64,000 nucleotides of DNA. Origin: Clostridia bacterium (GTDB lineage: Bacteria > Bacillota > Clostridia > TANB77 > CAG-508). Shown one piece after another: positions 37,298-56,315 of this stretch; position 1 is the first letter of the stretch; each line of letters begins with the position of its first letter. The notes under the pieces are model-generated. The model saw only the letters and a list, made by a program, of their open reading frames with translations. It ran no database searches and had not been told where the DNA came from. Where the stretch lies: NCBI GenBank assembly GCA_017511265.1, contig JAFWKV010000017.1, forward strand, positions 7,312-71,311. The letters run 5' to 3'. A program made the translations under genes and the position numbers.

Positions 37298-37528
37298 ATA
37301 AAATACAATACATTTTTACATCGAATTCGTTTACATGAAGAATTTTTTGTCATTTTCATAGACAAATACATATATAAGAGAATAAAAAATTTGTATTTTA
37401 AAAACTTTTATGATACAATTTCTAATATAAGATGTAAAATTAAGTACAAAAGCAGACATTAAAAATTATCAATGTCTGCTTTTACATTCATATATGTACA
37501 ACAAAAGCAGAGGAGAAATTTTAAAACT

Positions 37529-38245
37529 ATGAAAAAAACAAGAAAAGTTATATTTATTATATTAGAGATTATATTTGTACTTTTGACTATATATTCGTTA
37601 TATAACATATATCAATGGTATACAGAAAACAGAAAAACAAGTGAAATCTTACAAAGCATTTCAAATAGCATTACTGTTGATGAAGATAACAAAACAGTTG
37701 TGGATTTTGATAGATTAGAAGAAAATAATTCTGATATAATTGCATACATAAAAGTAAATGGAACTGAAATAAATTATCCTGTGGTTAAAGCAGATGATAA
37801 TGATTATTATTTAAGTCATAGCTTAGACAAGACAGTAAATGGAGCTGGATGGATATTTGCTGATTATAGAAATAAGCTAGATGGAACTGATAAAAACTTA
37901 ATAATATATGGACATAACCGAAGAGATGGGAGCATGTTTGGCACATTAAAAAATATTTTAAACAAAGAATGGTATGAAGATAAAAATAATCTTAAAATTT
38001 CTTTACATACAGAAAATGAAGAATCAACTTATGAGGTATTTTCTGTGTATCAATTAGAAGAAGAAGATTATTATTTACAAACATCTTTTAAGGATAAAGA
38101 ATTTTTAAGCTTTGTAAATACACTACAAGGAAGAAGTATAAAAAATTTTAATGTAGAAGTATTAGATCATGACTCTATTCTTACTTTGTCTACTTGTGCT
38201 AATGATAATAGATACAGAGTCGTATTGCACGCAAAAAAAATATAA
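37529..38245 (+). CDS. srtB: Class B sortase
   Basis: N-terminal TM anchor, catalytic TLSTC motif and conserved His. Lies immediately upstream of the dockerin gene cluster. Confidence 0.7.
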   Translation: MKKTRKVIFIILEIIFVLLTIYSLYNIYQWYTENRKTSEILQSISNSITVDEDNKTVVDFDRLEENNSDIIAYIKVNGTEINYPVVKADDNDYYLSHSLDKTVNGAGWIFADYRNKLDGTDKNLIIYGHNRRDGSMFGTLKNILNKEWYEDKNNLKISLHTENEESTYEVFSVYQLEEEDYYLQTSFKDKEFLSFVNTLQGRSIKNFNVEVLDHDSILTLSTCANDNRYRVVLHAKKI

Positions 38246-38350: not shown

Positions 38351-41300
38351 ATGAAAAACATTATAAAACAATTACTTATAAGTCTGATAGCATTTATCTC
38401 CTTAGCTGAATGCATAGTACCGCTATCAAGCTATGCTACAGAAAACAACATAGGTACAGATGGACTAATCAGACTAAACATAAAAGGAACAGACAGAACA
38501 ATAACAAAAACAACAACAATAGAAGAAATAAAAAGCTGGTATACAGGTGAGCATATATTTGAAACACCATCATTATATGGTGGAAAAGCATATAGCTTTT
38601 ATGTTGGCAACAATTTTGATGACTATTTATACATTGAAACAATTGCAGATGGAACAATATTTAGCTATGGTTCAGTAGACCCTAGTTATAAAACAAATAC
38701 ATATAGCTTTGACGATAATTATCCATATGGAAAACTTACAGTACTTTCTGGATGCTTATTAAGTGATGAAGGTATTATAAAAGGTGGAGTTTATTACAAC
38801 AAAAATGCTTACTTAAAAGGAAAATTTAGTGACATAAAACAAGCATACAAAGATGCATTTGAAGAAGAATATTGCAAGGCAAATAATATAGAAAAATCAG
38901 AAATAGGTACAGAAAAAGACAAAGGCAGACAATCAAAAGCAATGCTAGATTTGTCCAAGCATGCAGTACTAATGTATAACGGGCTGATTAATTATTATGG
39001 CAGAACAGAAAGTTTTATGGAAACAGATAAAGATAAGAACGGAACAGATACATTCAAAACTTTTGAAGAATTCTTTGACATAAACAATCAATTGATTGAG
39101 AACGGTTCAAATTTATTTTCATATTTAATAAAAAAGGGATATGGCACAAGCTATTACTATTCATTAGGAACAAAAGCAGGTTGTGATTTATATGATAATT
39201 CGTATTCAATTTTTAGTCCGTTACAACTAGCCGGGATGGCTAAATTACAAAAAAATGCAGATCTAAGTACAAGAAACAATCCAGTTTGGACGTATAACTA
39301 TAAAAATAAAGTCTTGTTTGGAATATCTTTCAAAAAAGATTGTTTAAAAAGAGAAGATACTATACAATACACAGATGATGAACTAAATAAATTAAAACAG
39401 GCAAGAGGATACTATAAGGATGCAATTGCAGAATTAAATAAAGAAAAAGACATATATAAAATACAGCCAGTATTAACTCCACCAGAAAATATGCAAGCTG
39501 GGGAATTAGTGGATTCTAAAAAGAAAGGAATACTAAATTATTTCAATGCAATTCGTTCTGCAGCAGGTTTAGGAACGTTAAAAGGTGTGGAAAAAGGATA
39601 TGACACAGCACAGCATTTAACAACATTGCTTGCATATAGACTTAGGTATTTAGGACTTGGACCTACTCATTATCCTGAACAGCCAGAAGGAGTAGATAGA
39701 GATTACTGGAAAAAAGCAGTTCGGTTGGGAAACATCATGGGGAAATTCATTATCTTATGCCTCAATATCAGTAAATGAAGCAAATATGATGAGACATATA
39801 AACAACCTACTAAATGACAATGATGGTAGTCTTGACTTCGGACATAGACGTCATTTATTGCATCCTGGATATGCAGAGTTTGGATATGGAATTACTGAAT
39901 CTTTTGCAGAAGTTAATTTAAATGGATACCAAGATTATAAGTATATATTTAATGGATGGCCAGCTCCAAATGGAATTACATTTATGGAATCTTTAACTTA
40001 CAGAAAATTTATTTGGTCTGTAGCTTTCGATAGAAGCAAATACCTAGTTCAAAATTCTTGTACTGCTGAAATTAAATGCTTAAATACAGGTGAAAAATAT
40101 ATTTTTAATGAAGAAGAGGGAGAAGCTGATTCTAATCGAATTTATCAAAATATTGTAGAAGGTGAACAAATAGATTCTTTAATTAATAAAGTGGTTATTC
40201 GTGATAATAACATAGAACCTGTTGCAGGATATGCTTATGAAGTAACTATTCATGGACTTAAAAATGTAAGAACAGGAAAAATAGAAGATTATACATATAG
40301 AGTTAGATTTGACTATGCAGATGCAGCTTCTTATGGTAATTTACCAACAGGAATAACTATTGAACCTGATGCAAAACTTGAAAAGCTTTCAAATACAAAT
40401 AATACATATAGTGCAAAAGTAGGAGAAACATATAAATTAAATGCAATATTGGAAGGAATAGATGAAAACGTAATAGAAAGAAAAATCACTTGGGAGTCTT
40501 CAAACCCTGAATTAGTTACAGTTAAACAAGATGGAACTATAAAAATAAATAAAGATACCAATGACAAAAGTGCTACCATTACAGTATATCTTGATGCAAA
40601 TAAAAGCATACAAGAAGAAATAATAATAAAACCCCAAGATGTAACATTGATTTTAGATACTGAAAATTATACATTCACTAGTTTAGATGATACCTTACAA
40701 CTCTCACCACACCTAAGCAATAATGAAGAAACAACATTTACATATAAATCAAGTAATGAAAATATTTTAAAGGTAGATAAAAATGGAGTAGTAAAACCAA
40801 CAGCTCCTGGATTTGCTGATGTTTCTATAACAGATACAAAATATAATAAATCTGTTATATGCAGATTTTATGTTGCAACATTAGTAACATTATCAGATGG
40901 AAGCAAAGCCTATGTAGGTGATATGAATAGAGATGGAATGTTCAATTCAGTAGATAGTTCATTAATTATAGGTGCTTATAATAGAACTCCAACAGAAGAT
41001 GAAGCATTAATTGGTGATGTAAGTGGCGATGGATACTTAAATGCTGTTGACAGTAGTATCATTTTGAAATTGTTTAGTGAAGACGTTTTTTCACCAGGAA
41101 AATATTTCCCAATAACAAGTGTAAAACTTAGTAAAAATGAATTAACACTACAGCCAAATAAAAGTGAAACTTTAAAAGCAACAATAGAACCCAAAAATAC
41201 AACAGATAGTCCAAAAATAACATGGAAATCTAGTGATGAAGGCATAGCAAAAGTTGATGAAAATGGAAAAATTACCGCAATAGCAAAAGGATCTACAGAA

Positions 41301-41573
41301 ATAGTTGCAACATCTACAAATGGAAAAGAAGACAAATGCACTGTAACAGTTGCAGAAAACACAGATAAACCACAAACACTAAAAGGCGATGTAAATGGAA
41401 ACGGAATAGTAGAGTTAACAGATTATTCAATGATTTTAAAACATGTAAAAGGAATAAAATTACTTGAAGGAGAACAATTAAAAAGAGCAGATGTAAACGG
41501 TAATGGAACAATTGAACTTACAGACTACTCAATGGTATTAAAACATGTTAAAGGAATAAAATTATTATTTTAA
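38351..41573 (+). pseudogene. G1. Secreted protein: unknown N-domain + CAP + Big_2 repeats + internal dockerin + C-terminal dockerin. Frameshifted paralog of G3.
   Basis: ORFs 38351-39778 and 39786-41573 align end-to-end with the 1080-aa G3. Relative to the G3 segment AVRTGTSWGD, the run ggaaAcatca has an extra A, shifting the frame. Confidence 0.75.
41376..41570 (+). repeat. Dockerin-coding DNA repeat (G1 3' end)
   Basis: About 195-bp segment, roughly 85-95 % identical among eight genes. Encodes GDVNGNGIVELTDYSMILKHVKGIKLL twice. Confidence 0.7.
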
Positions 41574-41601: not shown

Positions 41602-44046
41602 ATGGAAAAAACGAGAATAAAGAAAATACTATCTACTGTACTAATTTCAATATTTTTATGTAGCAACATGGTTTTTGCAATAAATGAAAACAATAATAAC
41701 ATTGAATTGCCAAATGAAGCACCAGCTGTAAATTTTGAAGAAAATAATAAAATTGATGAAATTGAACAAAAAATAAAAATAGAAGATTTAGAAAAATCGA
41801 AGAAAAGTAATCAATACACTGAGAAAAAAATTACTCCCTCAAAATCAAAAAAATTTTTAAAATCTACTACAAAATCTACAGACAAATATGAAGGACATTT
41901 AGTTGAAAGCAAAAACGACATATCATCAACTTTTGTCGTAAGAGATGGAAAACATTATTCATATTTGATTGACGAAACTGTTTTGCCAGTAGTTTCTATT
42001 TATAGATATTGCTTTGAGACACAAGAAGAAAAAGAAATATATCATAATGAAGAATTAATGGTAAATGATTATTCATATTATATTCATAACAATGTATATT
42101 TAAAAGACAAAATGATATATTTTGCAGCCTTTTCAAAGAATGATGATAATCATATACACATAGTAGGCTATAATACACAAACTGAAACAATAAGCTATTC
42201 AAACATATTTAATATATCAAAAGATAGCTATGCTGAAAGCTTTTGTATAGATGATAGCGAAAATGCATACATTGTTATTAAAGGACAAACTGAAGGTACA
42301 TTTAGAATTAATTCATATGATAAAAATGGAACATTAATAAGTAAATTAAATAATGACATATTTGATAGTTTTTATTCTATAAAAATAACAAATTCAAATA
42401 ATAATATGATTTGGATAAAAGCATATGTTGAAAATGGAGATTATGTTAGCCCTAGAGATATTGCAATGAGAGTAAATAAGGGAGTTTTTATTACAGAAAA
42501 TTATGATATATTACGCAAGAAGGGAATAGAAATAAAATTTCTAAATGATGAGAAAAATATTGCATATGACAATTATGGAGAAATATTAAAATTCAATTAT
42601 ACTGATACAAGTGTAAGCTTTTCAGTGATAAACTATATTACAATCGATAAACAAAAAACAGTTACTGTTCCTTTCGAAAATACAGTAGAAGATTCATATT
42701 TATATGCAGGTGGAGAAAAGGGAACAATACTTAAATATAATTGGGATACATTTAAAATAGAACGATTTATTTCAATTGGAGAAAACAAAGATGTTATAGG
42801 AACATTTAAAGATGGAGACAAATTATATATTGAATATATGGATCCTAATACATATGATGTGTATGCTCTTATACTTGATTATGAAGATTTTATGACACCA
42901 CAGCAGACAATAGAACTAACAAATAATACGACTTTAAACAGAACAAAAGATGATATAAAGAGTAAGTACAATGAGCTTAAAATAGTAAAAGCAAATAATT
43001 ACAAAAATATTTACTCTGAAGCACCTTCAGTTACTGCACCTTATAAAGCAGGTGTACTTAATGAACAAGCTAAAAATGATACCTTAAATCAAATAAATTA
43101 TTTTAGATGGCTTGCTGGAGTAAATGAAGTAACTATAAATGAAAAGTACATGGAAAATGCACAGTGCGGAGCAGTTCTTTTGACAACAAGCAAAGAATTA
43201 ATGCACAATCCTGCTAAGCCAAGTGATATGACAGACGAATTTTATAATAAGGCATTAGGTGCTATATATGCAAAATTAGGAATACCTATGTCAGCAAATA
43301 TATCTAGATATTCGCCATTAGCTGAATCTATAAAAGGATATGTAGATGATACCAATAATATGGAACCAAATGTAGGACACAGATTAAGCATACTTGACTA
43401 TCAAGCTACAACTACATCTTTTGGATTTGCAGAAAAAAATGGAACAGTTGAAATGTTTACAGATTGGAGTAAAACACCAGACAATGCATTTTATGCATGG
43501 CCATCACCAGGAAACTTTCCAATAGAATCAATTGCAAGTCAAGCAATGTGGTCAATTAGATATGACCAAACGATATGCTTTGTGTCAGATAATGTTGATA
43601 TAAAATTAAAGGCTAATGGCAAAGAATACTCGTCTGCTAATAATGATTTTGAAGTATTCCACGATGAAGATTATAGTGCATTATATTACAAATTACCAAA
43701 TGAGTTACTAACTTATTTAACAGATGGAAAAAATACCATTCAAGCAAATAAAAAGGTTGAAGTTGAATTAAGTGGTCTAGCTGACCTTCAAGGAAATGCT
43801 TATATAATAAAATATCCAGTTGAATTTATGAGTGTAAAAGAAAAAGCATATCTTAAAGGTGATGTAAATGGGAACGGAATAGTTGAATTAACAGATTATT
43901 CAATGATATTAAAACATGTAAAAGGAATAAAATTACTTGAAGGAGAACAGAAACAAAGAGCAGATGTAAACGAAAATGGTAGAATTGAACTAACAGATTA
44001 CTCAATGGTATTAAAACATGTAAAAGGAATAAAATTATTATTTTAA
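41602..44046 (+). CDS. G2. Secreted protein with an unknown N-terminal region, a CAP/SCP-like domain and a C-terminal dockerin.
   Basis: Signal peptide. CAP-like NYFRWLAGVNEV...GHRLSIL. C-terminal GDVNGNGIVELTDYSMILKHVKGIKLLEGEQKQRADVNENGRIELTDYSMVLKHVKGIKLLF. Confidence 0.7.
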   Translation: MEKTRIKKILSTVLISIFLCSNMVFAINENNNNIELPNEAPAVNFEENNKIDEIEQKIKIEDLEKSKKSNQYTEKKITPSKSKKFLKSTTKSTDKYEGHLVESKNDISSTFVVRDGKHYSYLIDETVLPVVSIYRYCFETQEEKEIYHNEELMVNDYSYYIHNNVYLKDKMIYFAAFSKNDDNHIHIVGYNTQTETISYSNIFNISKDSYAESFCIDDSENAYIVIKGQTEGTFRINSYDKNGTLISKLNNDIFDSFYSIKITNSNNNMIWIKAYVENGDYVSPRDIAMRVNKGVFITENYDILRKKGIEIKFLNDEKNIAYDNYGEILKFNYTDTSVSFSVINYITIDKQKTVTVPFENTVEDSYLYAGGEKGTILKYNWDTFKIERFISIGENKDVIGTFKDGDKLYIEYMDPNTYDVYALILDYEDFMTPQQTIELTNNTTLNRTKDDIKSKYNELKIVKANNYKNIYSEAPSVTAPYKAGVLNEQAKNDTLNQINYFRWLAGVNEVTINEKYMENAQCGAVLLTTSKELMHNPAKPSDMTDEFYNKALGAIYAKLGIPMSANISRYSPLAESIKGYVDDTNNMEPNVGHRLSILDYQATTTSFGFAEKNGTVEMFTDWSKTPDNAFYAWPSPGNFPIESIASQAMWSIRYDQTICFVSDNVDIKLKANGKEYSSANNDFEVFHDEDYSALYYKLPNELLTYLTDGKNTIQANKKVEVELSGLADLQGNAYIIKYPVEFMSVKEKAYLKGDVNGNGIVELTDYSMILKHVKGIKLLEGEQKQRADVNENGRIELTDYSMVLKHVKGIKLLF
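43849..44043 (+). repeat. Dockerin-coding DNA repeat (G2 3' end)
   Basis: Same repeat family. Confidence 0.7.
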
Positions 44047-44050
44047 ATGA

Positions 44051-44083
44051 AGTTGTCAATGGGGACGGTTCTAATTGACAACT
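44051..44083. repeat. 33-bp palindromic element agttgtcaatggggacggttctaattgacaact between G2 and G3
   Basis: One mismatch relative to 23248-23280. Confidence 0.55.
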
Positions 44084-44101
44084 CATATGAAGGGATATAA
44101 A

Positions 44102-47100
44102 ATGAAAAACATATTAAAACATATTATATCAATACTAATATCAAACATAATACTAATACAAGCATTTATGCCTATAGTAAGTTATGCAGAAGATTCAAAA
44201 ATTGGGGCTGATGGTTTAATAATGCTAAATATTAAGGGTACAGACAGAACAGTAACTAAAACAACAACAATAGACGAGATAAAAAACTGGTATGCAGGAG
44301 AGCATATATTTGAAACACCATCATTATATGGTGGAAAAGCATATAGCTTTTATGTGGGCAGCAATTTTGACGACTATTTATACATCGAAACAATAGCAGA
44401 TGGAACAATATTTAGTTATGGTTCAGTGGACCCTAGCTATAAAACAAATACATATAGTTTTGGAGATGAATATCCATATACCGAAAGAAATGTTTTATAT
44501 GGATGCCTTTTGTCAGATGATGGTAAAATAATTGGTGGAGTTTATTATAATAAAAAAGCTTATTTAAATGGTAATACAAACAAAATAAAACAAGCATATA
44601 AAGATGCTTTTGAAGAAGAATATTGCAAAGAAAACAAAATAGAAAAATCAGAAATAGGGACAGAAAAAGATACAGGTAGACAACCAGAAATTATTCGTAA
44701 TTTATCTAAACATGCAATACTTATGTATAATGGATTAATACATTATTACAATCGTGATGAGAGCTTTATGCAAACTGATAGAGATGAAAATGGAGATACA
44801 TCTTTTACGACATTTGATGAATTTTTTGACATTAATAATCAATTTATTGAATTTAAAACAACAGCCTTTAACTATATTGATGATATGAATTATAATTCAG
44901 ATTATTATTATGTTTTAGGTGCAAAATCCGATTGCGAAATATATAATTCATATTATATTTTTAACCCATTACAAATGGCAGGAATGGCAAGAATACAAAA
45001 AAATACGAACTTAAGTAATAGAAATATTCCAGTATGGACATATAATTATAATGAAAAAAAATTACAAGGTATATCTTTTTGGAAAGATTGTTTTAAAAGG
45101 ATAGAAAAAGTTGAATTAACGCAAGAACAACAAGAAAGATATAAAAAATTAAGAGAATATTATGCTAAAGGTGAAGAAAAATTAAATAAAGAAGAAGGAA
45201 TGTATAAAACATTACCTTATTATGATGAGCCAGAAAAAATGGTCGCAGGTGAATTATTACAATCAAAAAAAGAAGGAATTAGAGATTACTTCAATGCAAT
45301 AAGAGCTGGATGTGGGCTAAAGCCAGTGCAAATAGGAGAACAAGGATTTGACATAGCACAACATATGACTACACTTTTACAATATAGATTTGAAAAGTTT
45401 GGAACAGGACTATCACATCATCCAGATAAGCCAGAAGGTGTTAGTCAAGAATACTTTGATATAGCGGTTAGAACTGGTACATCATGGGGAGATTCACTAT
45501 CGTTTATGGCAAGAACAGCGAATTCAGAAGGGATGAAACAACATATAAATAACATGTTGTTTGATGATAACAAAGATTATCAATATGGACATAGACACCA
45601 TTTATTAACATCATTTTATTCAGACTTTGGATATGGAATAACTGGATTTTTTGCATCTTTACAATTAAAAGGAGCAAATGGAGATTATGCTCCGTGTGTA
45701 GCATGGCCAGCTTGTAATGGGGTTACTATGATGGAATCTTTGGGACAAAGAAATTTCGCTTGGACAATTAAGTTTTATGAACTTTACTATGAAATATTAG
45801 ACTCGTGCAAAACAGAAATAAAAAATTTAAATACAGGCAAAGTATATACATTTGATAAGGAAGAAGGTGATGTTGATTCTAGGCGCTTATATCAAAATCT
45901 TACTTTTGATGATATAACATATTCGTTTGCAAATAAAATATTACTTAAAGAACCTGAAATAAAGCCCATGGCTGGAGAAGTATATGAAGTAACTGTAAAG
46001 GGTATAAAAAATGTAAAAACAGGAAATATTGAAGATTACACATACAGAACGGCGTTTGTGTACGGAGACTCAAGCAAAGATATAGAAACACCAAAATCTA
46101 TAGACATAGAAGTTGATGAAAATTTAGAAAAAACATCAGCTAATACTTATACAGGAAAAGTAGGCAATGAATATAAATTAAATGCAATAATTGACGACTT
46201 AAATGCTGTAGACAAAAAAATTACATGGTCATCTTCAAATAGTGAATATGTATCAGTTAATCAATATGGAAAAATAAAAATAAATAAAGAAGGTAAAGAT
46301 GCTATAATTACCGTTTCACTAGATGCAGATAAAAACATACAAAAAAAGATAAAAATAACACCAGAAGATTTTAAAATAATTATTGACAATGATAAAATAA
46401 AGAACAACACTTATACATTTACAAGTCTAAATGAAATATTACAATTGCCTGTATATTTAAGTAATGGGGAAGATACAACATTTACATATAGCTCAAGCAA
46501 TGAAAAAGCAATAAAGATAAATGAAAATGGAACTGCAACATCTGTAGCAGGAGGATTTGCTAATATAACAGTTACAGATACTAAATCAGGTAAAAGTGTA
46601 ATATGTGATTGCTATGTACAAGTTCCTGTGATATTAAGTGATGGAAGTAAAGCTTATGTTGGAGATATGAATAGAGATGGAATATTTAATGCATTAGATA
46701 CTGCTAATATTTTAGATTCTTATAAAAATAATCCGAGTACTGACCAAATATTAGTAGGAGATATAAATGGAGACGGCAATTTGACTTCACTAGATGCATC
46801 TAAAGCAATTGACTTATTTAAAGCAGGTATATTTTTACCTGGTAAATATTATCCTATAACAAAGGTAAGCTTAAATAAAACAGAATTAACACTACAGCCA
46901 AATAAAAATGAAACCTTAAAAGCAACAATAGAGCCAGAAAATACTACAGATAGTCCAAAACTAACATGGAAATCTGGTGACGAAAGCATAGCAAAAGTTG
47001 ATGAAACCGGAAAAGTTACCGCAATAGCAAAAGGCTCTACAGAAATAACTGCAACATCTGCAAATGGAAAAGAAGACAAATGCAATATAACAGTTATAGA

Positions 47101-47317
47101 AAATATAGATAAACCACAAAAACTAAAAGGCGATGTAAATGGAAATGGAATAGTAGAGTTAACAGATTATTCAATGATTTTAAAACATGTAAAAGGAATT
47201 AAATTACTTGAAGGAGAGCAAAAAGAAAGAGCAGATGTAAACGAAAATGGTACAATTGAACTAACTGATTACTCAATGGTACTAAAACACGTAAAAGGAA
47301 TTAAATTATTATTTTAG
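44102..47317 (+). CDS. G3. Secreted protein: N-domain + CAP-like + Big_2 x3 + internal dockerin + C-terminal dockerin.
   Basis: Signal peptide. YGHRHHLL CAP motif. Big_2 (ITWSSSNSEYVSVNQYGKIKI; KLTWKSGDESIAKVDETGKVTAIAKGSTEITA). Internal GDMNRDGIFNALD...GDINGDGNLTSLD. C-terminal dockerin pair. Confidence 0.75.
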   Translation: MKNILKHIISILISNIILIQAFMPIVSYAEDSKIGADGLIMLNIKGTDRTVTKTTTIDEIKNWYAGEHIFETPSLYGGKAYSFYVGSNFDDYLYIETIADGTIFSYGSVDPSYKTNTYSFGDEYPYTERNVLYGCLLSDDGKIIGGVYYNKKAYLNGNTNKIKQAYKDAFEEEYCKENKIEKSEIGTEKDTGRQPEIIRNLSKHAILMYNGLIHYYNRDESFMQTDRDENGDTSFTTFDEFFDINNQFIEFKTTAFNYIDDMNYNSDYYYVLGAKSDCEIYNSYYIFNPLQMAGMARIQKNTNLSNRNIPVWTYNYNEKKLQGISFWKDCFKRIEKVELTQEQQERYKKLREYYAKGEEKLNKEEGMYKTLPYYDEPEKMVAGELLQSKKEGIRDYFNAIRAGCGLKPVQIGEQGFDIAQHMTTLLQYRFEKFGTGLSHHPDKPEGVSQEYFDIAVRTGTSWGDSLSFMARTANSEGMKQHINNMLFDDNKDYQYGHRHHLLTSFYSDFGYGITGFFASLQLKGANGDYAPCVAWPACNGVTMMESLGQRNFAWTIKFYELYYEILDSCKTEIKNLNTGKVYTFDKEEGDVDSRRLYQNLTFDDITYSFANKILLKEPEIKPMAGEVYEVTVKGIKNVKTGNIEDYTYRTAFVYGDSSKDIETPKSIDIEVDENLEKTSANTYTGKVGNEYKLNAIIDDLNAVDKKITWSSSNSEYVSVNQYGKIKINKEGKDAIITVSLDADKNIQKKIKITPEDFKIIIDNDKIKNNTYTFTSLNEILQLPVYLSNGEDTTFTYSSSNEKAIKINENGTATSVAGGFANITVTDTKSGKSVICDCYVQVPVILSDGSKAYVGDMNRDGIFNALDTANILDSYKNNPSTDQILVGDINGDGNLTSLDASKAIDLFKAGIFLPGKYYPITKVSLNKTELTLQPNKNETLKATIEPENTTDSPKLTWKSGDESIAKVDETGKVTAIAKGSTEITATSANGKEDKCNITVIENIDKPQKLKGDVNGNGIVELTDYSMILKHVKGIKLLEGEQKERADVNENGTIELTDYSMVLKHVKGIKLLF
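47120..47314 (+). repeat. Dockerin-coding DNA repeat (G3 3' end)
   Basis: Same repeat family. Confidence 0.7.
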
Positions 47318-47336
47318 ATAATTATTGGAGAAGAAT

Positions 47337-49511
47337 ATGGAAAAAATGAAAATTTTAAAAAATACATTAGCTATTTTATTTGTTTTAACAATAATAATAA
47401 ATTCAATAAATATACCTAAAACAATGGCATATACAGATCTTTTTATACAAGAAACAAGTGATAGACCCAATATTATAGAAGGGTCAGTTAGACTTAACCC
47501 TGAAACAAAAAGAGTTGCAGACTATGCTGGAAAAGATGCCTATTGTACTGGTGATGAAATAAAATTAGATGTATATATCGAGACACCTTATATAAATTTG
47601 AACACATTATCAGTAGGTGTAGGACTAAGCACAAATGCATTTGAATTTGTTGGTTATGAATTAGGAGAAGAAATACCAGAGGAATATAAAAATAAATTTT
47701 CAAAAAGAACAACTTATAATCAATTTATAGATTATTCCTCTGGAAAAGCTGATTACTCCCCAGATGGAGTTATACTTGAATATGAAGACTCAACAAATCG
47801 CATAAATAATTCTGGAGAATTCAAGGTTTTTACAGCAACATTCAAAGTAAAAAAAGCATTTATGGATTTAAAAACATTTAAAGACTATATAAAAAATGTT
47901 AAACCATGTACTACATATTCAAATTATAGAAATGATGAAAATAGACAGACTTGCTTTCCAAGAATGCAATTTAATAGTATCTATGACTTTTATGTAATGT
48001 CAGAGCCGAATCAAGTTTTAATTTATGATACAACAGCAAAAATGAAAATAAATGAATACAAAAAATTTAGTGTAAAAGTAAACCCAGAAACTGCATATCA
48101 AGGAGTTAAATGGAGTTCAAACAATCCAGATGTAGTCAGTGTTAGTGATGATGGAGTAGTCATTGCAAAAAAAGAAGGCAAAGCAACAATAACTGCAAAA
48201 GCAACTGCTAAAGAGAGTGTAAAATGCAATTACAATATTACAGTGAATGGTTTGTCTGATAATGTTTTGATTGAAAAAATAACAATTGATAATAAAGAAA
48301 AAATAAACAATTTATATCCTGGAAAATATGCAAATGTATTAGCTACTATTTTACCAGAAAATACTAATCAAGACAAAACAATTACATATTCTAGTTCAAA
48401 TCCAGAAGTAGCTACCATAGATAGTGATGGTACGATAAGAGCAATATATCCGGGAACAACAAAAATAACTGTAAAAACAACAAATGCAAAAACAGACGAA
48501 TATACAATAACTGTAAAGAATCCAGTTTCAAAAGTTAAGATAAAAAATAAAACAGCAGGAATTTATTTATATGATTATATGGGATATCCATTAGATATTG
48601 AAACAGAACCTGAAGGATATGAAGAATTAGTAAAACTTAGCTCATCAAATGAAAACGAAGTTATAGTAGATAATACATATAAAAGTATAAGAGCATTAGA
48701 TGTAGGAGACGTAAAAATAACAGCTCAAGTAGGAGACGTAAAAGATAGCTTTATGGTAGGAGCATTTACTAAAGAAATGCCGGCAACAAGTGTTAAAATA
48801 AATAATAAAATAGAAGAAATGGAATTAAAAGAGGAGATACAACTAGATGTTACGATAGAGCCTAACCCAGAAACTAATCCTGTAAGTAAACTAGCATTTA
48901 AAGTTGATGATACATCAATTGCAGATATTAGTACATTTGGAATTTTAAAAGCAAAAAAGGGAGGAAAAGTTAAAGTTACAGCATATTCAGCAACTACAGA
49001 GGATTCATTTATAGTAAATATTAATGCCGAAAGTGGTATAGAAGACTTTGAAATAATAGATTTTAATGGCAAAGTAGAAGAATATGCATCATCGTGTTAT
49101 GCAGTTAAAATAACACCTGAAAATGCTGATGGAAAAAATTTTTGGGAAGCAAGTAGTTCAAATCTGGATATACTTGATGCGTATAAATGGAATGATGATG
49201 AAATTGTAATCGATGGTATTTCTCCAGGAGAAGCAGATATAATAATAACTGCAGGAAGCGACTATAAAAAGATAATTCATGTAAAAGTTTTTGAATACGG
49301 AAGCCAAGATAATTACTTAAAAGGTGATGTAAATGGCAATGGAATAGTAGAACTAACAGATTATTCAATGATATTAAAACATGTAAAAGGAATAAAATTA
49401 CTTGAAGGAGAACAAAAAGAAAGAGCAGATGTAAATGGCAATGGCACAATAGAACTAACAGATTACTCAATGGTATTAAAACATGTAAAGGGAATTAAAT
49501 TATTGAATTAA
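47337..49511 (+). CDS. G4. Secreted protein: putative cohesin-like N-terminal module + multiple Big_2 + C-terminal dockerin. Candidate adaptor scaffoldin.
   Basis: After the signal peptide, a roughly 125-aa segment (GDEIKLDVYIETPYINLNTLSVGVGLSTNAFEFVGYELGEEI...GEFKVFTATFKVKKA) matches the cohesin beta-sandwich pattern, as I recall it from CipA-type cohesins (GDTV.V.V...YD...LE.V...G....DGVFA.I.FKVK). At least four Big_2 repeats follow, then the dockerin. Confidence 0.6.
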   Translation: MEKMKILKNTLAILFVLTIIINSINIPKTMAYTDLFIQETSDRPNIIEGSVRLNPETKRVADYAGKDAYCTGDEIKLDVYIETPYINLNTLSVGVGLSTNAFEFVGYELGEEIPEEYKNKFSKRTTYNQFIDYSSGKADYSPDGVILEYEDSTNRINNSGEFKVFTATFKVKKAFMDLKTFKDYIKNVKPCTTYSNYRNDENRQTCFPRMQFNSIYDFYVMSEPNQVLIYDTTAKMKINEYKKFSVKVNPETAYQGVKWSSNNPDVVSVSDDGVVIAKKEGKATITAKATAKESVKCNYNITVNGLSDNVLIEKITIDNKEKINNLYPGKYANVLATILPENTNQDKTITYSSSNPEVATIDSDGTIRAIYPGTTKITVKTTNAKTDEYTITVKNPVSKVKIKNKTAGIYLYDYMGYPLDIETEPEGYEELVKLSSSNENEVIVDNTYKSIRALDVGDVKITAQVGDVKDSFMVGAFTKEMPATSVKINNKIEEMELKEEIQLDVTIEPNPETNPVSKLAFKVDDTSIADISTFGILKAKKGGKVKVTAYSATTEDSFIVNINAESGIEDFEIIDFNGKVEEYASSCYAVKITPENADGKNFWEASSSNLDILDAYKWNDDEIVIDGISPGEADIIITAGSDYKKIIHVKVFEYGSQDNYLKGDVNGNGIVELTDYSMILKHVKGIKLLEGEQKERADVNGNGTIELTDYSMVLKHVKGIKLLN
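49314..49508 (+). repeat. Dockerin-coding DNA repeat (G4 3' end)
   Basis: Same repeat family. Confidence 0.7.
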
Positions 49512-49528: not shown

Positions 49529-51715
49529 ATGATAAAAGTAAAAAAGATACTATCTATACTTATGATAATTTCTATATTCATTTCTTTTGTATTACCAATT
49601 AATATAGCTAATGCAACATATACAATTAAACAATTGAGAAATATGTACCCTAGTAACATGCAATGGAATGATAAATACAAAGATGGATCATCTGAATGTG
49701 CTGGATTTGCATATTTAATTTATGATAGTTATTATGGAATAGGACCTAAAGAATATGGTAATAAAATAACAGATGTAGAACAAGCACAGCCTGGGGATAT
49801 TGTAAGATACAATGGCCATTCTGTATTTATTTTAACAAGAAATGGCGAGTCAACAACAGTAGTAGAATGTAACTATGATCGTCAAAATCATGTTAGATGG
49901 GATCAACCTAAAAATATGAGCGAATATAGAAATAGTTTTGAATATATTTATAAAGCACCATATATTTTAGAAACACCAGCGCCAGTAGTAGGAGTCCCTA
50001 CAAATGTGACTGTAGATACATCTAAATGGGTGCAAGCCAGTTGGAGTAAACCAAGTAACTGTTATGGATACTTATTGCAAGTTTATAATCAGGAGGGAAC
50101 TAAAGTCAAAGAAATAAAAATAAATAAAGCAGATACCACAGAACAAGCCATAGCAGGGTTAGAAACAGGTAATTATACACTTAGAGTATATGCTAAGGGA
50201 TTAGCTGGAGACTATTCTTCAGAATACGGAAGTGCAAAATTTTCATGCAAAAAGGAAGCAACTACATGTACTTTAAAAACAAAAAGTAATGTAATTGAAG
50301 TAGGACAAACCTACGAATATGAAGTAGTATTTCCAGAAGGGACTACAGCATATACAACACTTTTTATAGATTCGGAAGGAGATAAAAGTGTTTTAGAGAT
50401 TGAAAACCAAATGACAGTTAGAGGATTAAAAGAAGGAAATACAAAAGTATTTTTTATGATGAGAAGTAGTAATACAACTAGAACAGAGTCTTTTCAAATA
50501 AGTGTAATGAATCCATTAAGATTTAAAGATAACGAAGCAAAAACACTGAAAATAGGAGATAAATATCAATTAGAATTAAAATCAAAATCAGAAATTGCAA
50601 ATTCTGTTAAGTGGAACAGTTCGAATACAAGTGTAGCAACGGTTGACGAGCATGGTAATATAACAGCCTTAAAGGCAGGGAAAACGACAATAACTGCAAG
50701 TCAGAGTATGTGGACTACTGACCATAATGCATCTGGAACAACCCAAGATAAATGTACCATAACAGTAATAGACCCTAATATATATGCGACCAGTATAAGT
50801 TTAAACAAAACAGAAATGACATTAGAGAATATTGGAGATACAGATATTTTAAAAGCAACTATTTTACCAGAGAATACTACAAACAAAACAGTAACTTGGA
50901 CATCAAGTAATACAAATGTAGCAACAGTAGATGAAAACGGTAAAGTAAAAGTAAAAGGAGAAGGTAAGACGAAAATTACTGCAAAAACTTCAAATGGAAA
51001 GAGCACATATTGCATGGTTACTGTTCCAAAGCAAATTAAATGTAGTCTAAATTATACAGATTATACTTTTTCAAATTTGAACGAAACGATTCAAATACAA
51101 GCAAAATTAACAGATGGGTATAGCTCAACATTTAGTTACAAATCCACAAGGGACAGCATTTTAAAAGTTGATAAAAATGGAAAAGTAACTCCTGTAAAGG
51201 GTGGATTTGCAGATATTGTTGTAACAGACAATGTTTATGGAAAAAAGGCAACACTAAGTTGCTATGTACAAGTACCAGTAGTACTAAGTGATGGAAGTAA
51301 AGCGTATGTAGGAGATTTAAACAAAGATGGTTACTTTAATGCAACTGATGCTGCAATTATTTTAGATGGCTATAAAAATGGAGCTACATCAGATGATGTT
51401 TTGTTAGGAGACATAAATGGTGATGGATTTTTAAATGCTTCTGATAGTGCAATGTTACTAGATATATATAAGATGGGTCTTTTTTCGCCGGGAAAATATG
51501 ATAAAATAACAGAAAAAGTTGTAAAAGGTGACATTAATGGCAACGAAATAGTAGAACTAACAGACTATTCAATGATTTTAAAACATGTAAAGGGAATTAA
51601 ATTACTTGAAGGAGAACAAAAAGAAAGAGCAGATGTAAATGGCAATGGCACAATAGAACTAACAGATTATTCAATGGTACTAAAACATGTAAAAGGAATT
51701 AAATTATTGAATTAA
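49529..51715 (+). CDS. G5. Secreted papain-like (CHAP/NlpC-P60-type) peptidase + FN3-like + Big_2 + internal dockerin + C-terminal dockerin.
   Basis: SSECAGFAYLIY...GDIVRYNGHSVFIL...VVECNYD (Cys/His). Internal GDLNKDGYFNATD...GDINGDGFLNASD. C-terminal dockerin. Confidence 0.7.
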   Translation: MIKVKKILSILMIISIFISFVLPINIANATYTIKQLRNMYPSNMQWNDKYKDGSSECAGFAYLIYDSYYGIGPKEYGNKITDVEQAQPGDIVRYNGHSVFILTRNGESTTVVECNYDRQNHVRWDQPKNMSEYRNSFEYIYKAPYILETPAPVVGVPTNVTVDTSKWVQASWSKPSNCYGYLLQVYNQEGTKVKEIKINKADTTEQAIAGLETGNYTLRVYAKGLAGDYSSEYGSAKFSCKKEATTCTLKTKSNVIEVGQTYEYEVVFPEGTTAYTTLFIDSEGDKSVLEIENQMTVRGLKEGNTKVFFMMRSSNTTRTESFQISVMNPLRFKDNEAKTLKIGDKYQLELKSKSEIANSVKWNSSNTSVATVDEHGNITALKAGKTTITASQSMWTTDHNASGTTQDKCTITVIDPNIYATSISLNKTEMTLENIGDTDILKATILPENTTNKTVTWTSSNTNVATVDENGKVKVKGEGKTKITAKTSNGKSTYCMVTVPKQIKCSLNYTDYTFSNLNETIQIQAKLTDGYSSTFSYKSTRDSILKVDKNGKVTPVKGGFADIVVTDNVYGKKATLSCYVQVPVVLSDGSKAYVGDLNKDGYFNATDAAIILDGYKNGATSDDVLLGDINGDGFLNASDSAMLLDIYKMGLFSPGKYDKITEKVVKGDINGNEIVELTDYSMILKHVKGIKLLEGEQKERADVNGNGTIELTDYSMVLKHVKGIKLLN
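51518..51712 (+). repeat. Dockerin-coding DNA repeat (G5 3' end)
   Basis: Same repeat family. Confidence 0.7.
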
Positions 51716-51758: not shown

Positions 51759-51842
51759 TATGAAAAATTTTAGTATATAGATTGTAATTAAAAAAAGTTT
51801 ATGATAAAATTTGACCATAAAATAAAAGGAGGAAAATTTGTA

Positions 51843-54599
51843 ATGAAAAAATTTATTTCATTTATAATCATAGCAATATTATTGATACAAATGTATTTAC
51901 CAGTTTTATCATTTGCTACAAATGACAAAGTAGCATTAGACAATCACATAATAAAAGCTCTAAATGAAGGTAATTATGACAAAGATGAAGATGGAGAATT
52001 TACAATAGAGGAATTGTCAAAAGTATATTGGCTATATATAGACTGTGACGATGAATTTGTTGATTTAACAGGAATTGAAAACATGACCAATCTTTCAACA
52101 ATTGGATTTAATAGTGCAACATCTGATATGGACTTTACAGTATTAAGCCAATTACCATTAGACACATTATTTTTATCAGGATTTTTAAATGATATATCAT
52201 TTTTACAAAATCTTAATAGCTTGTCAGAGCTTTCAATATCATTTTACAATGAAGATGTACCATTAGACATACTTTCAACACTAACAACATTACAGAGTTT
52301 AAGAATAAGTTGCAATGGCGACATAGACATAGATAAATTAAACAACTTAACAGAATTAAAATATCTTACAATACAAGTTAGAGATGGAGTGGAAGTAACA
52401 CCAGAACTTATAGAAAATATAAATAGCTTAAAAGTTAAGAATTTTGCTTTAGAGGGAAAAGTTATTTACAATGTAGGAAATCTTGTATCAAATAAGCAAG
52501 CAGAAATCCCATTTGACAATATTCCATTAATAAAAGAAATGCAAAATCCAGGTAGTAAATTATACTATGAAGATTTTACATACAGCAAAAAAGATGATTT
52601 AATTACAGTAGATAATGCAAATAAAAAATTTCTTTTAAACCTAAAAAATGATGATACTAGAAGTGCAACAATTGAATTTGATAATGATATTACACTTGAA
52701 ATACAATGGAGTACTGCTGAAGATGATGAAGAACCAGAATTAAGCAACAAAATTAAAAATGCCTTACAAAAAGTAGGTGCAGACAAAGATAATAATGGTA
52801 AATATACAATAAGTGAATTAAAAAATGTACATTCTTTGGATTTAAACTTCTCATACAATGACAAATTTGACTTAACAGGAATTGAAAAGATAACAAATTT
52901 AGAGGGACTAACTATTACTGCAACATGTCCAGAAGTCGATTTATCACTATTAAAAGAGCTTCCAAATTTAACATATTTAAGTTTAAATGGAAATTTTAAT
53001 AGCATGGATTCTTTGGAGGGAGTAACAAATTTAGTTTCTTTAAGAATAAGTACATATAATAAAGATTTTTACTTTAATTTTGGGATAATAAACAGAATGA
53101 CAAATCTAGAAGCACTAGATATATACGGAATAAATGAAAATAATTTAAATAACATTAACAAATTAACAAATTTAAATAAATTAAAACGCCTAACTTTAAA
53201 CTTTGGAACAGAACCAAATGAATTAAAATTACCTAATTTAACAAATTTAGAAGAATTAAATTTGTCTTATATTAAAACAGATAATTTAAAAGATTTAGAA
53301 AAATTAACAAAATTAAGAAAATTATATATTCAACCAGTATTAAATAAAGATAATAGTGATGTTGACACAGAAGCTATAAAAAAATTAACAAATCTTGAAC
53401 AGCTAAAAATTACTTTAACAGATGATCCAAGTTGGGTTAATAGCTTATCAAAACTGAAACAAGTAGTTCTTGTAGCAAACACTACAGAAGATAACTATGA
53501 AAACCCACAAAAGATCCAACAAATGGTAAATGGAATTAATACTATTAAGGCAAATGTAAAATTAATAGGTCAATTTAACTTTAATATCGGGAAACTTACA
53601 GTTGGTGAAGAAAGAGATATAAATATAGGTGACAATATTTTAGTGAGAGAATTTAAAGACCCAAATAGCAAATTATATAGCCCTAATATCAATATAAATG
53701 TAGGTCATAACAATTTTATAAATGAATGGAATTATAATGAGAAAACTAAAATTGCACATTTAAAAGTTACTGAATTTGGTAATGATTATGCTTATGCTAG
53801 TGCATCAGAATATGAGGAAGATGGAATGTCGGTTAGCATAAATTTTAAATGGAAAGGCATCATAGATGATGACAAAGAAACAGAAATACCTATTAATGAT
53901 GAAAACTTAAAAAAAGCATTATTAGAAAAATATGATATAGATGGAAATAAAAAAATCACAAAACACGATTTATTAAATATTGACGAATTAGACCTAGACA
54001 ATAAAGGAATAGAAGATATTACAATTTTAGCATCTATGCCAAATCTTGAAAGAATTATTCTTCCAAATAATAAAATAAAAAATATTAAGGTAATTGAAGA
54101 ACTATCAAACAGCAGAAAAATACAATATATAAATTTAAAAAATAACGAAATTGAAGATATACAGCAAATAAAAGATGCAAATTTTGAAATTATTAATTTA
54201 AGTGAAAATTATATTGACTTTTCTGAAAATTCAGCAAATAGAAAAATAATAGTAGATTTTGGAATTGAAAGATGGGGAAATGAATATGATTTTTATTCAC
54301 AATATATGCCACTAAATCAAACAAGAGAAGAATTTATAAATGAAAATATAGATAATTATTTTAAAACCTATGCAGCAAATCAAAAAACGAAAACAACATA
54401 TAAAAAAGGCGACGTAAATGGAAACGGAATAGTAGAACTAACAGACTATTCAATGATTTTAAAACATGTAAAAGGAATAAAATTACTTGAAGGAGAGCAA
54501 AAAGAAAGAGCAGATGTAAATGGCAATGGCACAATAGAACTAACAGACTACTCAATGGTACTAAAGCATGTAAAAGGAATTAAACTATTAGATGAATAA
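51843..54599 (+). CDS. G6. Secreted leucine-rich-repeat (internalin-like) protein with C-terminal dockerin.
   Basis: Many LxxLxxLxLxxN repeats (LTNLEELNLSYIKTDNLKDLEKLTKLRKLYIQ) and a C-terminal dockerin pair. Confidence 0.7.
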   Translation: MKKFISFIIIAILLIQMYLPVLSFATNDKVALDNHIIKALNEGNYDKDEDGEFTIEELSKVYWLYIDCDDEFVDLTGIENMTNLSTIGFNSATSDMDFTVLSQLPLDTLFLSGFLNDISFLQNLNSLSELSISFYNEDVPLDILSTLTTLQSLRISCNGDIDIDKLNNLTELKYLTIQVRDGVEVTPELIENINSLKVKNFALEGKVIYNVGNLVSNKQAEIPFDNIPLIKEMQNPGSKLYYEDFTYSKKDDLITVDNANKKFLLNLKNDDTRSATIEFDNDITLEIQWSTAEDDEEPELSNKIKNALQKVGADKDNNGKYTISELKNVHSLDLNFSYNDKFDLTGIEKITNLEGLTITATCPEVDLSLLKELPNLTYLSLNGNFNSMDSLEGVTNLVSLRISTYNKDFYFNFGIINRMTNLEALDIYGINENNLNNINKLTNLNKLKRLTLNFGTEPNELKLPNLTNLEELNLSYIKTDNLKDLEKLTKLRKLYIQPVLNKDNSDVDTEAIKKLTNLEQLKITLTDDPSWVNSLSKLKQVVLVANTTEDNYENPQKIQQMVNGINTIKANVKLIGQFNFNIGKLTVGEERDINIGDNILVREFKDPNSKLYSPNININVGHNNFINEWNYNEKTKIAHLKVTEFGNDYAYASASEYEEDGMSVSINFKWKGIIDDDKETEIPINDENLKKALLEKYDIDGNKKITKHDLLNIDELDLDNKGIEDITILASMPNLERIILPNNKIKNIKVIEELSNSRKIQYINLKNNEIEDIQQIKDANFEIINLSENYIDFSENSANRKIIVDFGIERWGNEYDFYSQYMPLNQTREEFINENIDNYFKTYAANQKTKTTYKKGDVNGNGIVELTDYSMILKHVKGIKLLEGEQKERADVNGNGTIELTDYSMVLKHVKGIKLLDE
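54402..54596 (+). repeat. Dockerin-coding DNA repeat (G6 3' end)
   Basis: Same repeat family. Confidence 0.7.
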
Positions 54600-54632: not shown

Positions 54633-56315
54633 ATGAAAAATAAAAATAGTATTTTAATAAAATTTATATTTACTTTTGTATTAATAGCAACAATAACTCA
54701 AACAAACTTTATCTATGCAACTGCTTTAGAAGATGAAGAAGTATATGAAAGTTTACTTACAACAAATGAGCAAGAAGAGACAGACACAGGAAACCTAACT
54801 TATGCCTCTGGAGTTACAGATGAAATGTGCAAGCCAGAATATTGGGCAAGCAAAATAAAAGATGCAAGTAAGGTATTAATGACAAAATCAGAAATATCAA
54901 AGCTAAACCAAGATATTATAGACGGAGCTGGAACAAATGTATTTGATTTAACTAAAATTAACGAAACAAAAACTCCATCTGAAAGAGCGCAAATATTAGC
55001 AAACAGTGAAGACATTCCAATAAGAAATCTCTATATAGATGGTACATTAATAGATAATAATACATATTTTACAAAACTAAAAAATGCAATGATAGAAACT
55101 GGGTTTGATGGTGATGAAACAGTTCAAAAGTATGCAGTAGCTGTAAAAAGAGCAGATGTAAGAGTATGGCCAACAAATGATGTAATAGGCTATAGTGAAA
55201 CAGATCCAGATGACGAAATTGAAAATTCAATATTAAATGTAAATGAACCATTTGTAATAAGAGGAAAATGTGAAGTAGATGGCAAAACATTTTATTGGGG
55301 AAATTCAAATGTTTGCCCAGGATGGGTAGATGCAGAAAATTTAGCAATATGTGAAAGCAAAGAAGAATGGATAGATGCATGGCAAGTAGATGTATCAGCA
55401 AAAGACTTTCTTGTTGTAACACAAGATAAAATTACGCTAGAGCCATCTCTTTCAGTGCCAGAAACATCTGAAATAAAATTGATGATAGGAACAACTTTAA
55501 AATTAGTTTCAAAAAGTGATTTGCCTAAAAACATAGGTGAAAGAGGAACTTGGAATAATTATGTTGTATATTTACCAACAAGAGATGAAGATGGAAACTA
55601 TGTTAAACAATATGCATTAATATCACAGCACTATGATGTAAGTATTGGATTTTTACCAATGACACAAGAAAACATATTAAAAGTTGCATTTTCATGTTTA
55701 GGAAACAGATATGGCTGGGGTGGAATGTTAGGTGCAATGGATTGCTCATTATATAGTAGAAGTATTTATGAATGCTTTGGCTTAGAACTACCTAGAAATA
55801 CTACTTGGCAGATGAAGGTACCAGGAAAAGTTACAGATGTTTCAGAGAAGAATGATGAAGAAAAAGAAGCATTTTTAGAAAAACAAGCAGTAGGAGCAAT
55901 TCTCTTCTTCCCAGGACATGCAATGGTCTATACTGGCAATGAAAATAACACAAGCTATACAATAAGCGCAACAGGATCACTTTCTGATAGTATTGGTGAG
56001 CTAAATGTACAAAGTATGTATTCAGTAATTTTAAATCCATTAACAACCAGAAGAAGAAATGGAAGAACATGGCTAAATAATTTAACTTATGTATTGAGCT
56101 TTGGTGAAAACAATGAAGAGCTAATAGGTGACGTAAATGGAAACGGAATAGTAGAACTAACAGACTATTCAATGATATTAAAACATGTAAAAGGAATAAA
56201 ATTACTTGAAGGAGAACAATTAGAAAGAGCTGATGTAAACCAAAATGGAAACATAGATTTAACAGATTATTCAATGGTATTAAAACATGTAAAGGGAATT
56301 AAATTATTGAATTAA
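54633..56315 (+). CDS. G7. Secreted SH3b + NlpC/P60 (YkfC-like gamma-D-Glu-diamino acid endopeptidase type) with C-terminal dockerin.
   Basis: NRYGWGGMLGAMDCSLYSRSIY...PGHAMVY (Cys-His NlpC/P60). Dockerin at the C-terminus. Confidence 0.75.
   Translation: MKNKNSILIKFIFTFVLIATITQTNFIYATALEDEEVYESLLTTNEQEETDTGNLTYASGVTDEMCKPEYWASKIKDASKVLMTKSEISKLNQDIIDGAGTNVFDLTKINETKTPSERAQILANSEDIPIRNLYIDGTLIDNNTYFTKLKNAMIETGFDGDETVQKYAVAVKRADVRVWPTNDVIGYSETDPDDEIENSILNVNEPFVIRGKCEVDGKTFYWGNSNVCPGWVDAENLAICESKEEWIDAWQVDVSAKDFLVVTQDKITLEPSLSVPETSEIKLMIGTTLKLVSKSDLPKNIGERGTWNNYVVYLPTRDEDGNYVKQYALISQHYDVSIGFLPMTQENILKVAFSCLGNRYGWGGMLGAMDCSLYSRSIYECFGLELPRNTTWQMKVPGKVTDVSEKNDEEKEAFLEKQAVGAILFFPGHAMVYTGNENNTSYTISATGSLSDSIGELNVQSMYSVILNPLTTRRRNGRTWLNNLTYVLSFGENNEELIGDVNGNGIVELTDYSMILKHVKGIKLLEGEQLERADVNQNGNIDLTDYSMVLKHVKGIKLLN
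56118..56312 (+). repeat. Dockerin-coding DNA repeat (G7 3' end)
   Basis: Same repeat family. Confidence 0.7.

Follow-up and report, generated by a model that had tools for sequence, protein, structure and literature searches.

What is the role of a protein that ends in a dockerin and begins with a module resembling a cohesin? This question is raised by G4 (deposited at NCBI as MBR3249541.1, 'Ig-like domain-containing protein', from a Clostridia bacterium metagenome-assembled genome), which is encoded among other dockerin proteins within the 64-kb stretch of DNA that was analysed as a whole (hereafter, the window). Cohesin–dockerin systems are usually found by sequence profiles. From residue patterns, a preliminary description had read residues ~45–170 of G4 as a cohesin and had proposed that the protein may be either the scaffoldin of the system or an adaptor. 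Here, we take up these two roles in turn, combining the gene neighbourhood with profile comparisons and fold searches.

A sortase-headed cluster of dockerin proteins

The window has a G+C content of ~28% and contains clostridial housekeeping and sporulation genes. From position 37472 on, a sortase gene is followed by nine secreted dockerin proteins (one of which is divided by a frameshift, while the last runs past the end of the window; Table 1), whose heads comprise LRR, NlpC/P60, Big_2-rich and unknown domains; no glycoside hydrolase was found among the dockerin proteins of the cluster. Eight of the cluster proteins, G4 among them, are closed by a near-identical dockerin (type A), the coding DNA of which is 83–93% identical between G4 and six other genes, with unrelated flanking DNA. 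A second, clearly different dockerin (type B) is located internally in four proteins (g39786, g44075, g49529 and g61950). Three of these four also have a type-A C terminus (g39786, g44075 and g49529); the C-terminal dockerin of g61950 lies beyond the window. The dockerin of G4 is of type A only. A 475-amino-acid open reading frame after the sortase gene was considered as a scaffoldin and ruled out, as it is the 5′ half of the frameshifted g44075 paralogue.

The G4 gene is part of a tight same-strand array (19 nt to the preceding gene and 17 nt to the next). Its outline in the preliminary description holds throughout: the open reading frame begins at an ATG with a GGAG Shine–Dalgarno sequence 6 nt before it and has a stop codon at its end, the peptide stretches quoted for the N-terminal module are found verbatim in the translation, and the plan of signal peptide, N-terminal module, Big_2 spacers and dockerin is correct. 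Pfam recognizes Big_2 (PF02368; E = 3.1e-27, 94.8 bits against a cutoff of 22.8) in four stretches, plus Big-like, and the fifth Ig-like repeat and the domain boundaries were set by eye. Dockerin_1 (that is, dockerin type I, PF00404) covers residues 662–717 (E = 4.9e-12), with both F-hand repeats intact. Sequence and Pfam inspection show neither a sorting signal nor an SLH domain or membrane anchor in G4, whose C terminus is the dockerin; a dockerin at the C terminus of a polypeptide that bears a cohesin-like module is a feature of the adaptor type. The number of cohesin-like modules in G4 is at most one, and no paralogous copy of the N-terminal module (G4_N) was found in the window or in 43 loci.

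Table 1 Features of G4 and of the surrounding cluster (window coordinates; Anc in window-equivalent coordinates)
Feature	Position	Strand	Details
Sortase gene opening the cluster	37472–38245	+	Pfam Sortase, E = 6.1e-16
Frameshifted dockerin protein g38351 + g39786 (g44075 paralogue)	38351–41573	+	Type-B and type-A dockerins
Dockerin protein g41602	41602–44046	+	814 aa; type A only; remainder without assigned domain
Dockerin protein g44075	44075–47317	+	1080 aa; Big_2; internal type-B dockerin (nt 46652–46843, residues 860–923); C-terminal type A
G4 ribosome-binding site GGAG	47327–47330	+	6 nt 5′ of ATG; read directly from the sequence
G4 gene	47337–49511	+	724 aa; ATG at 47337; stop codon 49509–49511
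G4 Sec signal peptide, residues 1–31	47337–47429	+	MEKMKILKN, hydrophobic core, PKTMA, then YT; sequence reading, cleavage site (between PKTMA and YT) inferred
G4 N-terminal orphan module (G4_N), residues 32–225	47430–48011	+	All-beta core and poorly modelled tail
G4 cohesin-like core, residues 65–173	47529–47855	+	hhalign to cohesin profile columns 18–115
G4 stalk, five Ig-like (Big_2) domains, residues 226–653	48012–49295	+	Pfam and inspection
G4 C-terminal type-A dockerin, residues 654–724	49296–49508	+	F-hand repeats GDVNGNGIVELTDYSMILKHVKG / ADVNGNGTIELTDYSMVLKHVKG; Pfam Dockerin_1; typing
Dockerin protein g49529	49529–51715	+	728 aa; Big_2; type-B dockerin (nt 51302–51493) and type A
LRR dockerin protein g51801	51801–54599	+	Type A
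NlpC/P60 dockerin protein g54633	54633–56315	+	Type A
LRR dockerin protein g56333	56333–61651	+	1772 aa; type A
Dockerin protein g61950, 5′ part	61929–64000	+	1205 aa; type-B dockerin (nt 62286–62471); gene cut by window end
Anc, anchoring cohesin protein (NCBI MBR3249547.1)	65629–68472 (L005 19297–22140)		947 aa; 1.6 kb past window end; follows g61950

The anchoring scaffoldin lies past the window end

An ENA metagenome scaffold (ERZ28654795 scaffold_375) that is 100% identical to the window over a 17,668-nt overlap was the basis for walking past the window end, just outside which lies a bona fide cohesin. The protein that carries it, Anc, is composed of a signal peptide, one cohesin (residues 27–173; PF00963, E = 1.6e-8, 35.3 bits against a cutoff of 24.1, covering profile positions 1–138 of 139), four Big_2 domains, RYYR-CCHC-type Cys-rich repeats and a cell-wall sorting signal (that is, SPKTG, a hydrophobic helix and RRKRNK) that matches the sortase heading the cluster. 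Like G4, it was deposited as a plain 'Ig-like domain-containing protein'. A sister cluster (L003) closes alike, with a protein (a17172) that has TPKTG and a cohesin 37% identical to that of Anc (E = 6e-20), and the same DUF5640 and FAD-enzyme genes are located downstream of both. Further relatives of the Anc cohesin are found in Clostridia of the rumen and gut (the uncultured Ruminococcus RUG11889 and RUG14607, an Acutalibacteraceae metagenome-assembled genome and Butyrivibrio sp. CAG:318) and on metagenome contigs, and an xPxTG signal terminates nearly all complete open reading frames among them. The family profile of this anchor lineage aligns to classical cohesins over 127 columns, at 96%.

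Given the Pfam-recognized cohesin together with the sorting signal, the relatives ending in xPxTG and the agreement of the family profile with classical cohesins, Anc is a ScaE-like anchoring scaffoldin, and the proposal that G4 is 'the scaffoldin' of the system falls, as Anc fills this role. That G4 could be the primary or anchoring scaffoldin was suggested by its being the sole cohesin-like candidate inside the window, but a protein that has at most one such module, lacks any anchor and itself ends in a dockerin, in a cluster closed by Anc and with a sister cluster that ends in the same way, makes this reading highly improbable; we regard it as almost certain that G4 is neither an anchoring nor a primary scaffoldin.

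Sequence searches with the N-terminal module

Whether G4 is an adaptor depends on its head. As every protein of the cluster follows the plan of functional head, Ig spacers and dockerin, G4 would by default be expected to have a head domain, and it is an appreciable possibility, though one short of even, that G4 is an ordinary passenger docked on Anc. Its N-terminal module would then be a beta-sandwich head that is specific to this lineage and unrelated to cohesins, either an adhesin or a ligand-binding domain (of pilin-like, CBM-like or novel type), and its cohesin likeness would reflect no more than the similarity shared by beta-sandwiches in general, exaggerated by models of low quality.

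The sequence searches agree with such a passenger, being negative in all forms. PF00963 gave no match at E ≤ 10 to the whole G4 protein, to five trimmings of its module or to three trimmings of the orthologous module, and Pfam, NCBIfam and PDB sequence searches with G4_N likewise gave no match. A word-indexed search across 5.8 billion clusters yielded a single fragment, and exhaustive HMMER over 1.84 billion representatives returned a single match (P0002, a 655-amino-acid G4 orthologue from another sample of the same study); G4_N is a near-orphan with two known sequences. BLASTP against CipA cohesin-2 (identical in sequence to 1ANU) found nothing. A homologue search with this cohesin returned only 10 close relatives, and hhalign of G4_N against a CipA-only profile gave 0.4%; this narrow profile was judged underpowered and was therefore replaced by one of 35 experimentally curated cohesins (types I, II, 'R' and ruminococcal; Fig. 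S2 of PMC5590126). With our own HMM from the 35 cohesins (--max), G4 was absent at E ≤ 50 and no six-frame piece of the window matched. Searches for the two look-alike families were blank as well, with no match at E ≤ 10 for Pfam CBM_3 and none for pilins in Pfam at the same threshold, nor a pilin motif in G4.

On this sequence-profile evidence, G4 is not to be filed as a member of the cohesin family (PF00963). A missing PF00963 match was one of the outcomes that the preliminary description took to speak against its cohesin reading, and no match was found; however, that search is a weak criterion in this lineage, as only two of seven anchor-type cohesins score above the gathering threshold, another three fall below it (E = 1.4e-4 to 1.2e-3, the latter being the trimmed N-terminal module of a17172) and two are missed completely.

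Profile–profile comparison and fold searches

Against the 35-sequence profile, hhalign places residues ~65–173 of G4 on columns 18–115 of 157 (score 28.9–31, P = 1.4e-4 to 4.5e-4, probability 33–53%), in an alignment of 90–93 columns with the correct strand order; the probability is 63% (score up to 33) once the cluster's own cohesins join the profile. In this register, GDEIKLDV falls on the G..V.vPV strand, LSTNAFEFVGYELGEEI on YD...L......G.iv, GVILEYEDST on g.i.flf.d and FKVFTATFKVKK on GvfA.i.FkVk. By comparison, 120 column shuffles scored ≤20.0 (median 12.3), the reversed sequence 12.8, and the best of 88 other 200-amino-acid segments of cluster proteins (many of them Big_2 sandwiches) without overlap with the G4 module 18.8. 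Segments from the sister cluster and the cluster continuation contained no outliers except the two anchor cohesins. G4_N is thus the sole non-anchor outlier among more than 150 real segments, which, with 93 columns in strand order, speaks against an unrelated head. The claim that G4 has the only cohesin candidate within the window is borne out, given the absence of a PF00963 match (most open reading frames of at least 150 amino acids were scanned), the blank HMM search and this sole outlier.

For calibration, held-out classical cohesins scored 49–100 (probability 95–99%) against the 35-sequence profile, the seven anchor-lineage cohesins (run as single sequences, none being included in the classical profile) 29.3–44.0 and a non-cohesin (L017, DUF11-like) 15.9. 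As judged by this score, G4_N (30.9 over 93 columns) falls within the range of true divergent cohesins, near its lower limit. On the side of a passenger head, the module of the orthologue P0002 alone scores as noise (17.2, in the same register over 47 columns), and G4_N has no similarity to the anchor-lineage cohesin profile that includes the cluster's own cohesin (0.5%). The C-terminal third of G4_N departs from the cohesin profile. The cohesin pattern seen by the preliminary description is therefore above chance and in the proposed register, but it stays below accepted thresholds.

The cohesin fold is a nine-stranded beta jelly roll. AF2 models G4_N at a pLDDT of 52.7, and the model trimmed to the beta core is worse (45.3), which is what a head unrelated to cohesins could give. 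When these two low-confidence models were searched against 350,542 chains with Foldseek, a cohesin ranked first each time, and it was cohesins, not Ig, FN3 or generic sandwiches, that topped both searches (the ScaC cohesin 5lxv being among the top matches), which speaks against generic sandwich similarity. Beta-sandwich look-alikes, that is, CBM3 and Gram-positive pilin (RrgB/SpaA) domains, were interleaved with the cohesins, as a passenger head would allow; both ranked below them, an identity of G4_N as CBM3 was rejected on this ranking together with the blank CBM_3 search, and pilins differ further in that G4 has neither sorting signal nor pilin motif. The fold comparison thus favours a cohesin, with models of low confidence (pLDDT 45–53), and we consider it somewhat probable that G4_N has a cohesin-type fold.

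A model for two-tier surface display

Assuming that the sortase links Anc to peptidoglycan, the type-A dockerins of the cluster proteins, including that of G4, would dock on the Anc cohesin; that G4 docks on Anc in this manner is quite likely. G4 would then be on the cell surface, with its five-Ig stalk holding the N-terminal module away from the wall, at the tip. We suggest, tentatively and at a little under an even chance for the statement as a whole, that G4 serves as a subunit in the second tier of a non-cellulosomal cohesin–dockerin surface display (that is, a monovalent, ScaC-like adaptor), whose N-terminal module would be a highly sequence-divergent cohesin capturing a second dockerin specificity. 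The adaptor half of the preliminary proposal therefore remains alive, carried by the C-terminal dockerin and the cohesin-like profile and fold matches and burdened by the blank PF00963 search.

The best candidate for the ligand of G4_N would be the internal type-B dockerin of the four cluster proteins. The whole cluster has two dockerin types and exactly two cohesin or cohesin-like outliers (the N-terminal modules of Anc and G4), a parity that would pair them, and the cluster offers the type-B dockerins no other partner, which argues against G4 being a mere passenger. The order of assembly would accordingly be sortase, Anc cohesin, type-A dockerins, G4 cohesin and type-B dockerins. A possible extension, though less likely than not, is that G4_N is the founding member of a new cohesin group that sequence searches do not see (with only two known sequence clusters among ~15 billion proteins) and that specifically captures the type-B dockerins of its four sister proteins, giving a two-tier, non-cellulosomal 'surfaceome'.

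Comparison with the sister cluster bears on this model. Between the two orthologous clusters, identity is 68% for G4_N, 45% for the type-A dockerin and 37% for the anchor cohesin. The latter two appear to have changed in step, as expected of cognate partners, and the higher conservation of G4_N, judged from these sequences, fits a ligand other than the type-A dockerin. Against the adaptor model, the sister cluster has a G4 orthologue, and a type-B dockerin was not found there; moreover, the dockerin of this orthologue is out of frame in two samples, which could reflect the decay of a partnerless adaptor or a module unrelated to dockerins. Both the conservation of G4_N and the lack of type-B dockerins in the sister cluster are compatible with a passenger head. 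They would equally suit a module that is derived from a cohesin and retains the fold but has lost dockerin binding, serving as a head for a host, dietary or bacterial surface ligand: such a module shares the profile and fold evidence with an adaptor, would account for the departure of its C-terminal third from the profile and for conservation far above that of a fast-evolving cohesin–dockerin pair, and could be kept in a cluster without type-B dockerins. Yet nothing positive points to another ligand, and a cohesin-fold module on a dockerin protein in a dedicated cluster is most simply a working cohesin; we consider this loss of binding unlikely.

Relation to known systems and implications

The adaptor model has a counterpart in Ruminococcus flavefaciens, where ScaC is a monovalent adaptor scaffoldin, as given in the citation of Rincon et al. 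2004 by PMC5301203 (cohesin structure 5LXV). Like ScaC, G4 is a secreted protein that begins with one cohesin or cohesin-like module and ends in a dockerin, its gene shares a cluster with that of a single-cohesin scaffoldin anchored by sortase, and it would change one dockerin specificity for another through putative dockerin binding by G4_N. In contrast to G4_N, which fails PF00963, the ScaC cohesin is recognizable by sequence (type-I-like); G4 further differs in its five-Ig stalk, and the cargo of its cluster is made up of LRR, NlpC/P60 and Ig-rich proteins, with no glycoside hydrolases among them. The counterpart of the sortase-anchored single-cohesin scaffoldin ScaE (PMC5301203) is Anc, not G4, given its signal peptide, single cohesin and LPXTG-type sorting signal, although Anc also has four Big_2 domains and Cys-rich repeats of the RYYR-CCHC type, and its sorting motif is SPKTG. 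By analogy, the G4 system would work like the ScaE/ScaC arrangement of R. flavefaciens, with non-enzymatic cargo displayed.

Several elements of this model are already known. Ruminococcal cohesin groups too divergent for Pfam and CDD profiles have been found by AlphaFold-based screening, and several of these cohesins belong to adaptor scaffoldins, whether monovalent or polyvalent (PMC13463774, mBio 2026). G4_N, if real, would be Pfam-invisible in the same way, but those cohesins have confident AF2 models, whereas G4_N has two sequences and a pLDDT of 45–53. In R. flavefaciens FD-1, dockerins are found on non-cellulosomal proteins with LRR, peptidase, serpin and transglutaminase domains (PMC2930009); this precedent for dockerins on non-carbohydrate-active heads such as LRR also fits G4 as a passenger, although here the whole cluster is without glycoside hydrolases and four proteins have two dockerin types. 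With dockerins on LRR and peptidase proteins (PMC2930009) and Pfam-invisible cohesins (PMC13463774) on record, G4 is at most a very divergent variant.

In summary, the most useful concrete outcome is that the scaffoldin role moves from G4 to Anc. Profile detection works badly outside model cellulosomes, as illustrated by the small fraction of anchor-lineage cohesins that pass PF00963 (two of seven) and by the deposition of both Anc and G4 as Ig-like proteins. If G4_N is not a cohesin, G4 is a dockerin-tethered passenger with an orphan head, and the useful result is the scaffoldin just outside the window. If, on the other hand, the head of G4 is a working cohesin, it would represent a new divergent cohesin group and a new orthogonal cohesin–dockerin pair of possible use in protein engineering, and the cluster would provide an uncultured rumen or gut Clostridia bacterium with a compact, self-contained system that displays non-enzymatic proteins (LRR, NlpC/P60 and Ig-rich) on the cell surface in two tiers.

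Anchoring cohesin proteins

In each of the two anchoring cohesin proteins, that is, the one encoded past the window end (L005) and its sister-cluster counterpart (L003), a long run of Cys-rich RYYR-CCHC-like repeats (...CxxEGNxxYYxCSxCxKxF...HDW...) separates the Big_2 domains from the sorting signal. The sole annotation of both proteins is 'Ig-like domain-containing protein'. A lineage of sortase-anchored single-cohesin proteins was found in rumen and gut Clostridia (loci L022-L025 and L006-L013), with hosts among Ruminococcus RUG MAGs, Acutalibacteraceae and Butyrivibrio sp. CAG:318; its cohesins match PF00963 marginally or not at all, and their N-terminal strand cross-matches DUF11.

Possible CAP-like heads and interrupted reading frames

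The dockerin proteins g44075, g38351 and g61950 have in common a head of approximately 450-650 amino acids, for which a Pfam search gave no match. Its motif ...NAIRAG.GL...GHRHHLL...FGYGI is reminiscent of CAP/SCP domains, making the head a candidate member on sequence likeness. The sister cluster encodes a CAP protein with a dockerin (L003 12174-13496), and the window a CAP+SH3 protein (17939-18691). The 621-aa ORF at 7931-9796 (+) matched no Pfam family at E<=0.001.

Window 38351-41573 holds one g44075 paralog broken into two ORFs. The frame changes at approximately 39,700-39,790, past which g44075-like sequence ('...WGNSLSYASISVNEANMMRHINNLL...GHRRHLL...') resumes in frame +1; the break reflects either decay into a pseudogene or a mistake in the assembly. 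In P0002, the 655-aa ortholog of G4 (cohesin-like module, Big_2 stalk and type-A dockerin) in the sister cluster, the ORF ends 'VVKQRKSR*' and a full dockerin (QDDYLRGDVNEDGKVNAGDYVAVLNYV...GDGKVNAGDYVTILNIVRGKI*) follows downstream in a different frame (L003 11963-12158), a frameshift identical in contigs from two samples (L003 and L004).

Type-A and type-B dockerins

Four proteins bear a second, internal dockerin of type B on top of the C-terminal one, which is type A in all three members typed; two dockerins of differing type in one polypeptide are unusual. Across seven genes, type-A coding DNA is 83-93% identical and the flanking sequence is unrelated (25-40%). Given this likeness confined to the module, the sequences suggest homogenisation or gene conversion of the type-A dockerin DNA inside the cluster.

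Coordinates of the features discussed (window positions unless a locus is named)
Feature	Position	Strand	Remarks
ORF, 475 aa, first half of split gene	38351-39778	+	paralogy to g44075
ORF, 595 aa, second half of split gene	39786-41573	+	paralogy to g44075
Anchoring cohesin proteins	L005 19297-22140 (window-equivalent 65629-68472); L003 17172-20285		
Common head region	44075-~46000; 38351-39778; ~62500-64000		in g44075, g38351 and g61950, respectively
Type-A dockerin DNA	last ~192 nt of genes ending 41573, 44046, 47317, 49511, 51715, 56315, 61651	+	83-93% identity
Internal type-B dockerins	40908-41099; 46652-46843; 51302-51493; 62286-62471		pattern YVGDMNRDG.FNA.D...GDINGDG.L...D
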